Assembly: GCA_045580815.1 (NCBI GenBank)
Contig: JAZNOL010000014.1
Location: 1 to 57,244 of the forward strand
Length of the DNA: 57,244 nt
Origin: Clostridia bacterium
GTDB lineage: Bacteria > Bacillota > Clostridia > RUG12999
Direction: 5' to 3'
The notes beneath the pieces are model-generated. The model was not told where the DNA came from, did no database searches, and worked only from the letters and a program-made list of their open reading frames with translations. The stretch's first letter is position 1. Every line of letters begins with the position of its first letter. Positions 2,681 to 17,315 of this stretch are shown here, piece after piece. The position numbers and the translations under genes were made by a program.

Positions 2681-4523
2681 TTAAAAATTCATCTCCTGTA
2701 ATTTTTGCAATATTTTCGGCATCAAGCCCGCAATTTTTCATAAGAATATCACGTTTTCCGTGATTAAGCGGCACATTTTCAATTGATAAGCATTTCAGCC
2801 GGCAATCCGGGTTCAGATTTGAATGTAATAAAGCTATTTCCTCCCCTAATCCGCCGTCAGAAATATTATCTTCAACAGTAACCATAACTGAGTATTTATC
2901 AAAAAGTTGTTTGATTAGCTCTGTATCAATAGGCTTTACAAATCTCATATCTGCAACTGCAACGTTTATCCCTTGGCTATCAAGCCTGCTTGCAGCATCA
3001 AGTGCCACAGAAACGGTGCTTCCGGCAGTAATTATAACAGCATCTTTGCCGTCTTTTAAAATCTCGCCTTTTCCGTATTCAATATCAGTTTTGTATTCAA
3101 TGTTTTTTTCTTCCGAGCCTCTCGGGTATCTTACAGCAACCGGACCACTACATTTGTTTACAGCAAAATCAAGCATTTTCTCAAGCTCGCTGTAACATGA
3201 CGGCGCCATAACCATCATGTTCGGAATAGTCCTCAAATACGATAAATCATATATTCCCTGATGTGTTGCACCGTCGGCACCTACAATTCCTGCTCTGTCA
3301 ACAGCAAAAACAACATGAAGGTTCTGCAAAGCAACATCATGCAGAATCTGGTCATATGCTCTTTGTAAAAATGTTGAATATACAGCAAAAACAGGAATAA
3401 TACCCATTTTAGCCATACCGGCACACATGGTTACTGCGTGCTGTTCGGCAATACAAACATCGAAATACCTTTCGGGAAATTTGTTTCTGAACTCTGTTAA
3501 ACCTGTGCCGTCAGGCATTGCCGCTGTAACCGCAACAATTTTCTCGTTGTTTTCAGCAAGCGTACAGAGGTGTTTTCCAAAAACCGAAGAATAGTCGCTG
3601 TTTCCAGAAAAAATTTCACCGGTTTCAACATCAAAACACGAAACGCCGTGAAATCTTTTTGGTTTTTCTTCGGCAGGAATATAGCCTTTTCCCTTTTTAG
3701 TAATGACATGTATTACAACATTTTCGTCGGTATTTTTTACCCGCTGAAAAATCTTTATAAGGGTTTTGATGTCATGACCGTCATAGGGGCCAAGGTATCT
3801 AAATCCAAGTGCTTCAAAAATGTTTTCTTTAAGAAAAAGCCTTTTTACAGTTTCTTTAAATCCGTATGCAATTTTCCAAAGTGTTTTCTTATTAGAAAGA
3901 GATTTTTCTGTTGCACGCTTAATTCTATTGTAAACATTACCGCTTCTAAGATTACTCAGTTGCCTGGATAATCCGCCGACATTTCTTGAAATAGACATCT
4001 GGTTGTCATTTAAAACAACAATCATGCCCTGGTCTTTTTGCCCTGCATCTGCTAATGCCTCACAAGCCATTCCGCCGGTTAATGCACCGTCTCCGATAAC
4101 GCTGACAACTTTATAATCTTTGCCCAAAAGCTCTCTTGCCCGTATCATTCCTAAAGCGGCAGACACTGATGTGCTGCTGTGCCCTGTGTCAAAACAGTCC
4201 GCTTCATTTTCGGCAGTTTTGGGGAAACCGGAAATACCACCATAGGTACGCAGGCTGTTAAAACTGTCTTTGCGTCCGTTGATTATTTTGTGAACATAGC
4301 ATTGGTGACCTACGTCCCATATAATCTTATCTTCGGGAACATCAAAAACATAATTAAGTGCAACTGTAATTTCTGTAACTCCCAAATTTGAAGCAAGATG
4401 TCCGCCTGTTTTTGAAATTGTTTCAACAAGAAGTTTTCTGACCTCTTCACAATATTCAGACAATTGGTTTATATTTAATTTTTTTAAGTCTTCGGCATTG
4501 TTTACTGTATCTAAAATATTCAA
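2661..4523 (-). CDS. dxs: 1-deoxy-D-xylulose-5-phosphate synthase
   Basis: GGHLASNLG, WDVGHQ, TPP motif GDGALTGG...LNDN, IAEQH, FLQRAYDQ, DGATHQG. Start re-assigned to TTG at 4523, 7 nt after a GGAGG RBS (the ORF track starts at 4595). Confidence 0.97.
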   Translation of the reverse strand: MNILDTVNNAEDLKKLNINQLSEYCEEVRKLLVETISKTGGHLASNLGVTEITVALNYVFDVPEDKIIWDVGHQCYVHKIINGRKDSFNSLRTYGGISGFPKTAENEADCFDTGHSSTSVSAALGMIRARELLGKDYKVVSVIGDGALTGGMACEALADAGQKDQGMIVVLNDNQMSISRNVGGLSRQLSNLRSGNVYNRIKRATEKSLSNKKTLWKIAYGFKETVKRLFLKENIFEALGFRYLGPYDGHDIKTLIKIFQRVKNTDENVVIHVITKKGKGYIPAEEKPKRFHGVSCFDVETGEIFSGNSDYSSVFGKHLCTLAENNEKIVAVTAAMPDGTGLTEFRNKFPERYFDVCIAEQHAVTMCAGMAKMGIIPVFAVYSTFLQRAYDQILHDVALQNLHVVFAVDRAGIVGADGATHQGIYDLSYLRTIPNMMVMAPSCYSELEKMLDFAVNKCSGPVAVRYPRGSEEKNIEYKTDIEYGKGEILKDGKDAVIITAGSTVSVALDAASRLDSQGINVAVADMRFVKPIDTELIKQLFDKYSVMVTVEDNISDGGLGEEIALLHSNLNPDCRLKCLSIENVPLNHGKRDILMKNCGLDAENIAKITGDEFLNAKAKA

Positions 4524-14401: not shown

Positions 14402-15466
14402 TTACTGTTCGTCCTCATAAATAGTTTTTACGTTAATGCCTTTCATTGACGAGAGCTTCAGCTCCATGCCCTTTAACTTTGACTGCGGGCCGTCAAGTGT
14501 AAGGTTTATTACTCTGATGTCATATTTTTTGTACGGCATACCCATTCTGCCGACAATATATTTTCCGTATTCATGAATACATTTGTTTACTTCATCAACC
14601 GATGCATCATTTTTAACGGTTACCGACATAACCGCCAACTTATTTCCGAACTCAGAAATTTTCAGCTTCGCTGTATTTTCGGAAGATATTTCAACGGGCA
14701 CAATATCATGTAAAGCATTTTTTTCTGTTTCAACCGTGCCGATGACGGTTTTTACCCCAAACGCCGCTTCAATATTCTTTTCTGTAACAACCTCGGCAGT
14801 ATTTCCAAACAATACTCCCCCATGTTTGCTTATAAGCAACGATTTGTTTGCTCTTCGCAGTGCATGAGCCGGATAATGTGTATTAAAAATACAGCAAACG
14901 CCTGATTGTGCCAACTGAGATATTGTATCAAGCACAATTATCTGATTTTTAAAATCAAGGTTTGATTCAGGCTCGTCCAGAATAAGAATCTGCGGATTTG
15001 AAACAAGTGCTCGTGCAATCAGCACCATCTGTAACTGTCCGCCGCTTATTTCGTTACACTGTTTTTCGGCAATGCTTTCTATATTAAGTCTTTTCATAAC
15101 CTCAAACGCATCAGCAACATCTTTTGATGACGGTGTTTCAAAAAAATTCAAGCTTCCGCTTTTTCCAAGAAGTATCATTTCCCGAACGGTCAGCGATGAT
15201 GTGCTCTGTTTTGCCTGTGGAACGTAAGAAACAATGTTCCACAGCTGTTTCGGGGAAAGATTTTTTATGTTTTTTCCGCCGATTATGCTTTCTCCGCTAC
15301 GCCATTTCAAAAATCCCATTATGCATTTAAGAAGTGTTGTTTTTCCTACACCGTTTGGCCCGAGAATAGCAATAACATCCCCTTTTTGTGCATCAAAATT
15401 TATATTTTCCAATATGTTATTCTGTTTCGCATATCCGAAACAACCATTTTTAACCGACAATATCAC
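14402..15466 (-). CDS. FepC/BtuD-type ABC ATPase fused to a C-terminal TM1266-like (iron-only hydrogenase system regulator, ACT-like) domain
   Basis: GPNGVGKTT, ISGGQ, LILDEP and NTH; C-terminal EVNKCIHEYGKYIVGRMGMPY...LTLDGP...GINVKT resembles TM1266. The real start is GTG 15466 in a GTGA overlap with the permease stop; the ORF-track extension to 15739 is spurious. Confidence 0.85.
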   Translation of the reverse strand: MILSVKNGCFGYAKQNNILENINFDAQKGDVIAILGPNGVGKTTLLKCIMGFLKWRSGESIIGGKNIKNLSPKQLWNIVSYVPQAKQSTSSLTVREMILLGKSGSLNFFETPSSKDVADAFEVMKRLNIESIAEKQCNEISGGQLQMVLIARALVSNPQILILDEPESNLDFKNQIIVLDTISQLAQSGVCCIFNTHYPAHALRRANKSLLISKHGGVLFGNTAEVVTEKNIEAAFGVKTVIGTVETEKNALHDIVPVEISSENTAKLKISEFGNKLAVMSVTVKNDASVDEVNKCIHEYGKYIVGRMGMPYKKYDIRVINLTLDGPQSKLKGMELKLSSMKGINVKTIYEDEQ

Positions 15467-16500
15467 AGCTGCCACCCCTTTCCTCTGCGAAGAAGGAATA
15501 TGAAAAACGGTGCGCCTATTATGGCTGTCAGCACAGAAATTGGAATTTCTGATACAGAAGCCGACCTTGCAACCGTGTCTGTAAGCATCATAAATGCCGC
15601 ACCGAGACTTATTGATGCCGGCACAATAGAAAGATGGTTTGCACCAAATTTCATGCGGCATATATGAGGAATTATAAGCCCTACCCATCCAACCTGACCG
15701 CACATTGCAATGCTTGCGGCGGTAACAGCAGTTGAACAAATAACGGTTACTATCCGTGTGAGTTTTAAATTGACACCTGTTGACTGAGCCTCTTCATCTG
15801 AAAGCACAAGAATATTAAGTCGCCACCTGATTATATATAATACTAAAACACCAATGGCAATTACGGTTATTCCGGGTATGATGGAAGAAAATCCGGCACC
15901 GTTTAAACTTCCCATAAGAAAATATGTTATTGCCGGAAGCTGCGTTTCGGAATCGGCAAGAAATTTTACCAACGAAACAAGAGCTGAAAACAGGGAGCTT
16001 ATCATTATACCGGACAAAACCACGCTACTCATTCCCCTACCAAGTTTTGAACCTGAAAACCAGGTGAGAGCAACAGCACCAAGTCCAAAAGCAAAGGCAC
16101 AGATATGGATTCCAAGTGTGTTAAATCCAAGAAGAATTCCAAGTGCCGCACCAAAGCTTGCTCCACCCGCCGCACCGAGGGTATCGGGCGTTGCAAGAGG
16201 ATTGGCAAAAAGGCTCTGATATGCACAACCGCTGACAGAAAGACCCGCCCCTACAAATGCCGCAAGAAGAATGCGCGGAAGACGTATTGTGTTTATTATT
16301 GTTGTGATTTGTGCAGGAAGCCCGGAATTTGCGTTAAAAAGCTCCGCAAGTGCCTTAAAAGTGTCAGGCAGGGAAATTATCATTCTTCCGCTGCAAAGAG
16401 CAATAATCGCTGCAAAAACCGGAATAATCAGTAATAATATTTTTGCTTTAACGGATAATCCGCCGGGTGCTGTTTTCTTTAAAGATTTACTTCTGTTCAT
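15463..16500 (-). CDS. FecCD/BtuC-family ABC permease
   Basis: IRLPRILLA..VGAGLSVSG..YQ.LF.NPLA.PD.LG...GA, EEAQSTGVN, GQVGWVGLIIPHI.R, EIPISVLTAIIGAPFF. Confidence 0.95.
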   Translation of the reverse strand: MNRSKSLKKTAPGGLSVKAKILLLIIPVFAAIIALCSGRMIISLPDTFKALAELFNANSGLPAQITTIINTIRLPRILLAAFVGAGLSVSGCAYQSLFANPLATPDTLGAAGGASFGAALGILLGFNTLGIHICAFAFGLGAVALTWFSGSKLGRGMSSVVLSGIMISSLFSALVSLVKFLADSETQLPAITYFLMGSLNGAGFSSIIPGITVIAIGVLVLYIIRWRLNILVLSDEEAQSTGVNLKLTRIVTVICSTAVTAASIAMCGQVGWVGLIIPHICRMKFGANHLSIVPASISLGAAFMMLTDTVARSASVSEIPISVLTAIIGAPFFIFLLRRGKGWQL

Positions 16501-16514
16501 TTTAGTTTCCTTTC

Positions 16515-16550
16515 AAAAACAAAAAGCTGTGCTTCTTTCGAAAGCACAGC
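16515..16550 (-). terminator. Intrinsic terminator (attenuator) in the 5' leader of the nitrogenase-like operon
   Basis: GCUGUGCUU-loop-AAGCACAGC followed by UUUUUGUUUUU, just before the AAAGGA RBS of the first gene and downstream of the promoter. Confidence 0.8.
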
Positions 16551-16673
16551 CTGCATATGCATAACAAACAGATTTAACCTAAAAAGGCTAAATCAACTGT
16601 AAACAAAGGTCATCGGCTTTCATCTCAAAACGTATTTTTGATGTCAGGGTCATAACATTTAGTTTGTATTTAT

Positions 16674-16702
16674 ATTATATATTAAATTCAAAGGTTTGTC
16701 AA
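16674..16702 (-). promoter_or_regulatory. Consensus sigmaA promoter of the nitrogenase-like operon
   Basis: Exact TTGACA-17 nt-TATAAT, giving a leader of about 165 nt. Confidence 0.88.
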
Positions 16703-16709
16703 TAATTTA

Positions 16710-17315
16710 TCAAAAATTATTATATAAAATTTTTAAAGCGTTTGATGCAATAAGCGGTTTTGCGTGTTCGGCAAGATAAGATGCAAAAAGCTCTGCGTGC
16801 CTTATTTTTTTGCCATATTCACAAACCGAAGCATTAAATTTTTTTGTGTATCCCCTAAGTGCATTAGGAACATTTATAACAAGACGGTATTCTCCGTTTG
16901 TTTTATAAAGGCTGTTATTTCCGTCAAAAAGAAGACAGAAATACAGATTATTTTTTGCAAAACGGCATACATTGTCAAAGTTTTCAAACGCAAAAATTAT
17001 TACTGCCTGGTTTTCTTCGGTTTGCTCCGTTTTTGGTTTGTATTTATATCGCTTAACGCCGGAAGAAGTTTTTTCGCTTTTTGTTATATAAACAACCGTG
17101 CTTGACATATCCTTTTGCATTACCTCAATAGTGAGGCGGCAGTTTTCAAAGGTTATACCTGTTTCTTTTGATGCAAGTTTTATAAGATTCCAGAACATTT
17201 CGTTTGACTTAGGGTTTTCGGGGCTGAAATTCTGAAATTTAATATTTAATTTTAACATATCCTGCGATGTAAGGGTTATCTTGACAGCGCTGTCTGAAAT
17301 TTTTTCGATTTTCAT
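16710..17315 (-). CDS. mecA: MecA-family ClpC adaptor protein
   Basis: MKIEKISD..VKITLT..DM N-terminus, IFAFENFD.V and S.LYK..GEY.L; start ATG 17315 after GGAG. Confidence 0.8.
   Translation of the reverse strand: MKIEKISDSAVKITLTSQDMLKLNIKFQNFSPENPKSNEMFWNLIKLASKETGITFENCRLTIEVMQKDMSSTVVYITKSEKTSSGVKRYKYKPKTEQTEENQAVIIFAFENFDNVCRFAKNNLYFCLLFDGNNSLYKTNGEYRLVINVPNALRGYTKKFNASVCEYGKKIRHAELFASYLAEHAKPLIASNALKILYNNF

Follow-up and report, generated by a model that had tools for sequence, protein, structure and literature searches.

The leader that precedes a nitrogenase-like operon in a Clostridia bacterium is, on comparative evidence, a real and conserved attenuator RNA, and the attenuation idea of the preliminary description of this DNA held. 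The leader contains a conserved hairpin with covarying helices, followed by an intrinsic terminator; the 3' half of the hairpin can instead pair with the 5' arm of the terminator, the two pairings being mutually exclusive, and the element is linked to genes for TM1266-like domains. We give an even chance to the reading that the leader is an effector-stabilised anti-antiterminator, i.e. an OFF switch, on genes for maturation of the [FeFe]-hydrogenase H-cluster, with the free TM1266-like protein as candidate effector. The leader and its operon lie on the minus strand of the window, by which we mean the whole stretch of 57,244 nucleotides that was analysed. The features of the leader and of its surroundings are as follows.

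17327-16710, minus strand: mecA, upstream of the leader, with no other terminator ahead of 16552
16702-16674, minus strand: sigma-70 type promoter, TTGACA (16702-16697), 17-nt spacer, TATAAT (16679-16674); 12/12 consensus
16657-16608, minus strand: conserved putative sensor hairpin (covariance models R1 and R2, covariation, column conservation)
16656-16652 with 16613-16609, minus strand: helix P1, GUUAU with AUGAC
16647-16646 with 16618-16617, minus strand: CU paired with AG
16645-16644 facing 16620-16619, minus strand: internal loop, GA facing AA
16643-16640 with 16624-16621, minus strand: helix P2, CAUC with GAUG
16639-16638 facing 16626-16625, minus strand: internal loop, A(A) facing GA
16637-16635 with 16630-16627, minus strand: helix P3, AAA(A) with UUU(U)
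16634-16631, minus strand: terminal loop, UACG
16630-16615, minus strand: antiterminator strand UUUUGAGAUGAAAGCC, the 3' half of the hairpin, which can pair with 16551-16536 (terminator 5' arm and loop; truncated-transcript fold)
16594-16571, minus strand: variable spacer hairpin GAUUUAGCCU-UUUU-AGGUUAAAUC (sequence reading and fold)
16552-16515, minus strand: intrinsic terminator, stem-loop 16552-16524 and U-tract UUUGUUUUU at 16523-16515 (sequence scan)
16513-16498, minus strand: RBS AAAGGA (16513-16508) and permease ATG (16500-16498) (sequence reading)
16500-8986, minus strand: controlled operon of seven genes (Pfam and NCBIfam assignments)
16500-15463, minus strand: FecCD permease, first gene of the operon (Pfam)
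about 15466-14402, minus strand: ABC ATPase with C-terminal TM1266-like domain (Pfam)
14386-13328, minus strand: HydE (TIGR03956, 542.8 bits against a cut-off of 254.6; NCBIfam)
13331-12564, minus strand: NifH-like protein (Pfam)
12571-11231, minus strand: NifD-like protein (Pfam)
11240-10113, minus strand: NifK-like protein (Pfam)
10101-8986, minus strand: substrate-binding protein (Pfam)

Leader architecture and conservation of the hairpin

The exact TTGACA-17-TATAAT promoter of the preliminary description could be verified at all 12 consensus bases, and orthologous leaders showed near-consensus TTGACA...TATAMT promoters at an equal distance upstream of the motif. Transcription would start near 16667, as we infer from the position of the promoter, and the leader then measures about 167 nt, in agreement with the approximately 165 nt described earlier; both of the hairpins that had been described in it were found, and its fold was better than those of shuffled controls (z = -3.16). 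The strong terminator reported directly before the RBS was also present. It consists of AGGCUGUGCUUU-CGAAA-GAAGCACAGCUU, with 12 pairs including 5 G-C pairs, followed by the U-tract, and its stem ends 24 nt ahead of the permease ATG. Only 14 nt remain from the U-tract to the -1 position of the start codon, too few to accommodate a promoter.

Judging from the orthologous leaders, only the first of the two hairpins, CAUC-AAAAA-UACG-UUUU-GA-GAUG at 16643-16621, is the conserved one. The second is present in the window as described but shows no sequence conservation and is a variable spacer element; several orthologous leaders carry an unrelated hairpin at its position. It survives in the antiterminator fold, in which the loop separating the two pairing strands becomes shorter through its presence. 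A sequence said to occur both at the 5' end and at the start codon, AAACUAAAUG, is not repeated exactly; the copy at the start codon is AAACUAAAAUG, and an 8-mer, AAACUAAA, is shared by the two places.

The core of the conserved hairpin reads CUGA-CAUC-AAAA...UUGA-GAUG-AAAG, the window copy being CCCUGACAUCAAAAAUACGUUUUGAGAUGAAAGCC. Across the family, P1 is followed by CUGAC, a helix of 3-4 bp and RAAA; past a variable hairpin come UUGAG, the strand complementary to that helix and GAAAG, which leads back onto P1. Membership was defined by the core YCUGAC-NNN-RAAA...UUGMG-NNN-RAAG together with a covarying 4-bp P2, all of which could be found in the window copy. Two G/A-rich 2x2 internal loops flank the 4-bp helix, and about 15 nucleotides of the internal loops are near-invariant across phyla, with G16645 and A16644 at invariant positions. 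Column conservation revealed half-sites of the form YUGA-N4-RAAR on both strands, giving the hairpin a pseudo-two-fold axis through P2. P1 of the window, which has a 4x3 internal loop, is less regular than that of most relatives. A K-turn was considered and rejected, as the loops read in the alignment are GA/AA without a 3-nt bulge.

Orthologous leaders were gathered by means of the permease protein, since similarity searches with the leader DNA in 61 related genomes gave only AT-rich chance matches. The upstream regions of the orthologous operons could not be aligned, except for one common element. A covariance model (R2) of this element, made from 23 orthologous leaders without the window and its near-identical Flexilinea relative, had 16657-16608 as its sole significant match on the 57-kb window (37.8 bits, E 5.6e-8, filters off), the runner-up scoring 13.3 bits. 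Model R1, which gave 45.8 bits for the window copy, detected the motif upstream of 26 of the 27 assessable operons of the type permease-ATPase-(HydE)-NifH-like, i.e. those with enough upstream sequence, in both Bacillota and Chloroflexota, and also matched loci outside its seed. The copy of Flexilinea (Chloroflexota) shared 31 of 32 core nucleotides with the window copy, the permeases being just 57% identical.

The proposed pairs were 83% canonical in a MAFFT alignment of 25 sequences, compared with 70% in column shuffles and at most 45% when the partners were slid; a count of paired cells gave 85%, compared with 71% in shuffles and again at most 45% with slid partners. As the sequences are phylogenetically related, these shuffle statistics, like the permutation statistics given below, overstate independence. 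Covariation was seen in P2 and P3. Among 50 distinct model-aligned sequences, the variable pairs of P2 were GC:23/AU:21, CG:37/UA:11/GC:2 and CG:29/UG:10/UA:9. The structural conservation in orthologous leaders on which the earlier proposal had been made to depend was thus present, both as R1 and R2 matches and as covariation.

The preliminary description had been unable to match the leader to cobalamin, SAM-I, TPP, T-box, NiCo, Moco or fluoride motifs, and a search of the window with Rfam 15 likewise found no family at gathering score. At E <= 10, positions 16450-16760 (311 nt) gave four chance-level matches, all with E > 2. Ten further leaders of the class also showed no Rfam match to the motif. 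A T-box leader (125.6 bits), which is unrelated to the motif, was observed downstream of hydF at L114:4549-4790. The C. difficile sRNA SQ1002 was rejected as a relative, its 11.7 bits being far below the gathering score of 128.

In a class-wide scan with R1, in which 14 candidates per genome were scored, the motif was found under strict filters in at least 15 of 399 genomes, a count that is a floor and not a frequency. Three R1 matches (L113, L115 and L117) were discarded, being located inside ORFs and having neither a TM1266 gene nor a terminator. Upstream of 40 randomly taken TM1266 genes (L124-L163), R1 gave 2 clear and about 8 borderline matches, and related variants could be recognised by eye in at least 22 of the 40 upstream regions. 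These variants comprise at least two further subtypes, e.g. CUGA-N4-6-GAGGG...CCC-GA-N3-4-AAGG and CCGA-CCGC-AAGG...CCGA-GCGG-AAAGG, which received low R1 scores; in L125, P3 was extended by an insertion of about 70 nt. The poor scores of related variants indicate that R1, and R2 likewise, models one subtype of a broader family. Two identical motif copies were present at L013:290-336 and 3859-3905, separated by 3.5 kb and with a permease match behind each, either as a duplicated operon start or as an assembly repeat. In the genome from which the window derives, only one good motif copy was detected with R1; weak matches at C3:28695-28779 (E 0.18) and C68:8010-8104 (E 0.79) are probably due to chance.

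Controlled genes and linkage to TM1266

The operon downstream of the leader encodes an importer of the metal-chelate type, HydE and NifHDK-like proteins, and its gene order (permease-ATPase-(HydE)-NifH-NifD) recurs in about 30 other genomes. A PF21699 domain (67.9 bits) was identified in the ATPase, 2.1 kb downstream of the motif. The longest ORF of the ATPase, 14402-15739 on the minus strand, has a TTG start and overlaps the permease gene by about 275 nt. Its true start probably lies near 15466, giving a protein of 354 aa that aligns with FecE-type ATPases from residue 1.

The preliminary description had tied the element to the nitrogenase-like operon. This restriction was not upheld, since the element also heads hydE/hydG/hydF operons. 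In the flanks of the R1 scan, motif and terminator preceded operons of a free TM1266 gene (81-89 aa) followed by the genes for HydE, HydG and HydF; NCBIfam assigned the genes of these operons to TIGR03959, TIGR03956, TIGR03955 and TIGR03918 far above the cut-offs, and the equivalog scores were 562 bits for HydE, 920 for HydG and 564 for HydF. Read from these gene contexts, the element is the mark of an H-cluster maturation regulon that includes the importer/NifHDK-like operon. In the window's own genome, HydE is present within the window operon. A hydF gene, with a product 60% identical to verified HydF, is located at C80:7240-8424, where it follows a gdh-like gene and its terminator and lacks the leader motif. 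A tblastn search of this assembly, which is 85% complete, detected no hydG homologue.

A TM1266-like domain was encoded on the same strand beside all of the 48 true R1 matches and beside none of the three false positives, which were located inside ORFs. In addition, all species genomes were scanned with an IUPAC pattern that used one P2 variant. Among the matches listed, a TM1266 gene adjoined 30 of 31 plausible sites, and 47 of 80 loci were chance matches in GC-rich genomes. The exception, L170, has the motif before hydF and no adjacent TM1266 gene. This locus, from an Anaerocolumna sp. MAG, showed a good motif with a consensus promoter about 400 nt upstream of hydF; in the spacer of about 370 nt, neither an ORF of at least 60 aa nor, by scan, a simple terminator was found.

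Three layouts could be distinguished. In the majority of loci (a), the motif is followed by a free TM1266 gene and then by other genes. In the second layout (b; L042-L050 and others), the free TM1266 gene comes first, has a promoter of its own and lacks the motif; motif and terminator follow, and then the other genes. In the third (c; the window and L010), the motif precedes genes in which TM1266 is represented solely by the C-terminal part of the ABC ATPase; accordingly, the window operon has no free TM1266 gene. In L042, L044, L046 and L050, the promoter of the TM1266 gene, GGTTGACA-N17-TA(C/T)GAT, lies about 300 nt upstream of the motif and leaves a very short 5' UTR; in these loci, gating would be confined to the downstream importer/HydE/NifHDK genes. 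Tandem attenuators were observed at L009:2353-2847 and L022:3421-3899; in each, a motif with terminator precedes the free TM1266 gene, and another lies between this gene and that of the permease.

The TM1266 family is annotated only as 'putative iron-only hydrogenase system regulator' and has no DNA-binding domain; 2NZC, the one relative with a solved structure, is a structural-genomics entry that carries no annotation. To our knowledge, no RNA-binding activity of TM1266 has been described. When 72 free TM1266 proteins were compared with 21 ATPase-fused domains, N22, H26, GRMGxPY, D55 and K77 were kept in both groups, whereas R4, E13, K/R43, G66, K/R67, G69 and R/K70 were kept in the free proteins only and lost in the fused domains. 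This residue pattern fits a ligand site common to both forms and a surface specific to the free form. The window's own genome encodes one canonical free TM1266 protein elsewhere (C37:4236-4481; 81 aa, 114.5 bits). Its gene starts about 20 nt after htpG and is followed by a hairpin and a gene for a RelA/SpoT-like small alarmone synthetase; there is no motif within 12 kb, and the gene is far from any hyd gene.

Proposed switch and nature of its effector

Terminators followed all of the 47 unique motif copies at a distance of 10-82 nt past the motif (55 nt in the window); 45 were obtained by scan and two, which have one mismatch or a larger loop, by eye. The resemblance among the terminator stems of the family is explained by the complementarity of each 5' arm to the 3' half of the hairpin. 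When the transcript of the window was folded as truncated before the 3' arm of the terminator, 16630-16623 paired with 16543-16536 and 16618-16615 with 16551-16548, while the 5' side of the motif formed a small alternative hairpin (16658-16653 with 16646-16641). Cognate antiterminator duplexes of the family had a mean energy of -13.4 kcal/mol, compared with -9.3 for non-cognate and -8.2 for shuffled duplexes, and none of 5000 permutations was as low, the relatedness of the sequences making this test overstate independence. The alternative pairing of the window itself (-11.9 kcal/mol) was weaker than the family mean.

Competing helices had been proposed previously on the basis of two other pairs of complements. 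Both exist in the leader, ACAAAC (16666-16661) with GUUUGU (16569-16564), which is paired in the MFE fold, and CUAAAU (16662-16657) with AUUUAG (16593-16588). No counterpart of either helix was seen in the orthologous leaders, and no leader of a close relative aligned with that of the window. The alternative that recurs throughout the family is a different one, the pairing of the hairpin's 3' half with the 5' arm of the terminator. As the 3' half of the hairpin is shared with the antiterminator, the hairpin would act as an anti-antiterminator; its stabilisation would promote termination, and we infer that the direction of the switch is OFF.

In the proposed mechanism, the nascent RNA, initiated near 16667, would fold the two-fold symmetric hairpin 16657-16608. 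Alternatively, the antiterminator could form by pairing of the 3' half of the hairpin (16630-16615) with 16551-16536, which comprise the 5' arm of the terminator and its loop. Without effector, the antiterminator would prevail and the importer-HydE-NifHDK-like operon would be transcribed. With effector, the hairpin would be clamped, the terminator (16552-16524) would form and transcription would stop at about 16515. The effector may be the free TM1266-like protein, here that of C37:4236-4481, presumably loaded with a metabolite of the pathway and acting in the manner of PyrR on the pyr leaders.

The identity of the effector is the part of the proposal on which the explanations diverge. A small TM1266-like protein is favoured over a direct riboswitch, with confidence that we place at the midpoint between belief and doubt, because of the 48/48 linkage, the regulator-first layouts, the two-fold symmetry of the hairpin and the basic residues peculiar to the free form (R4, K/R43, K/R67 and R/K70). 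Speaking against it, the free protein of the window's own genome is net acidic by charged-residue count, layout (c) and L170 have no free gene in cis, and the free gene belonging to the window sits elsewhere, after htpG. The fusion of TM1266 to an ABC ATPase makes it probable that a small molecule is bound by the domain, a property that would fit an RNA sensing the same molecule equally well.

The preliminary description had proposed attenuation by a ligand. A conserved attenuation leader without an Rfam match was indeed found; given the TM1266 linkage and the hairpin symmetry, a protein effector is at least as likely as direct sensing. A direct riboswitch is nevertheless a serious contender, if not the expected outcome: the symmetric hairpin would be an aptamer, maybe in two copies, for an H-cluster-linked small molecule or metal species, the switch would be OFF and no protein would be needed. 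TM1266 would then independently bind or carry that compound or one related to it, in a role comparable to that of free Mop proteins beside the Moco riboswitch and ModC. Consistent with this, the architecture is the classical one of OFF riboswitches (3' strand of P1 shared with the antiterminator, then a terminator), the internal-loop nucleotides are near-invariant across phyla, and the regulon combines biosynthesis genes with an ABC importer, as do those of cofactor riboswitches. Small aptamers consisting of a hairpin with an internal loop are known from the NMT1/xanthine, nhaA-I and HMP-PP classes. The ATPase-fused TM1266 domain resembles a small-molecule trans-inhibition domain, so that a diffusible effector probably exists, and the window operon and L170 manage without a free TM1266 gene in cis. 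A riboswitch accounts less well for the near-absolute linkage to one small regulator-like gene (48/48 R1 matches; 30/31 among the pattern matches listed), for the regulator-first layout with its own promoter, which is unusual among riboswitches and typical of protein-dependent attenuators, and for the strict two-fold symmetry, for which a homo-oligomeric protein would be the simplest reader. Nor does the gene set name a ligand, the obvious pathway intermediates being labile organometallic species. The narrower proposal of a new riboswitch class, in which the hairpin as aptamer would directly sense a compound specific to H-cluster assembly, seems rather unlikely to us; candidates for such a compound are intermediates and by-products of HydG/HydE chemistry and the species that the ABC/nitrogenase-like system imports and reduces.

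Quite improbable is recognition by another trans-acting factor, e.g. a different protein such as HydF, a general antiterminator or a small RNA, with the TM1266 linkage reflecting a shared pathway only. The logic of hairpin and terminator does not itself name the partner, and L170 pairs the motif with hydF where no TM1266 gene is adjacent; against this, none of the other genes shows a consistent linkage, since hydE, hydG, hydF, the importer genes and the nifHDK-like genes are each present in only a subset of the operons. The absence of any switch is highly improbable and close to refuted: a terminator that only ends the mecA transcript, with chance hairpins in an AT-rich spacer, would suit the lack of another terminator between mecA (17327-16710) and 16552, but was rejected because a 12/12 promoter lies between mecA and the terminator with no promoter room after the latter, and because the hairpin is conserved and covaries where the upstream gene differs, and attenuation through a 21-codon leader ORF (ATG at 16651, stop at 16588-16586) was rejected because this ORF, which is not a conserved one, lacks a Shine-Dalgarno sequence, the orthologues conserving pairing and not a reading frame.

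With the metabolite-loaded TM1266-like protein retained as the preferred effector, the conserved leader switch offers a concrete regulatory mechanism for hydrogenase maturation and a candidate function for TM1266, that of a ligand-gated RNA-binding protein. The shared switch would place the importer-HydE-NifHDK-like operon in the H-cluster maturation regulon, and this placement is independent evidence, from regulation and not from gene neighbourhood, that the nitrogenase-like enzyme serves the supply of hydrogenase cofactor. Whether sensed by the RNA or by TM1266, the effector should be a metabolite of the pathway, and its identity bears on the product of the nitrogenase-like enzyme. Should the riboswitch reading be true, the ligand would name the nitrogenase-like substrate and show the source of the [2Fe] subcluster in HydG-less bacteria.

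Comparison with known systems

A full-text literature search gave no description of the motif and none of a function of TM1266, and the papers searched contained nothing on RNA-level control of hydE, hydG or hydF; the conserved leader-RNA class is thus apparently undescribed. The closest parallel to the preferred mechanism is PyrR-dependent attenuation of the Bacillus pyr operon (RF00515), in which an effector-loaded protein stabilises an anti-antiterminator and the terminator forms, as is proposed here. Attenuators are also similarly placed, in the 5' leader as well as behind the regulator gene and ahead of the gene that follows it, as observed in L009 and L022 (motif, TM1266, motif, permease). 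In contrast, the motif RNA is unrelated to the PyrR-binding RNA in sequence and structure and has no Rfam match, and PyrR is a protein of PRTase fold sensing UMP/UTP, whereas TM1266 has an ACT/NikR-C-like fold and is a putative RNA binder.

The layout of L042-L050 resembles that of the hut operon, in which the gene of the regulator HutP comes first with its own promoter and is followed by an RNA site and a terminator gating the structural genes. The RAT hairpin recognised by the CAT domains of LicT and SacY has two quasi-symmetric internal loops suiting a dimer, as does the motif hairpin. Binding of HutP and of CAT domains, however, prevents termination (ON), whereas binding to the motif hairpin should promote it, and neither HutP nor LicT/SacY has any relationship in sequence or fold to the motif system.

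OFF riboswitches for cofactors and related compounds, such as Moco (RF01055) and NMT1/xanthine, likewise control biosynthesis genes and an ABC importer of one cofactor pathway, share the 3' strand of P1 with the antiterminator and have conserved internal loops between covarying helices. The motif differs from these riboswitches in that it matches no Rfam model and in its near-obligate linkage to one small protein gene, a linkage that is absent there.
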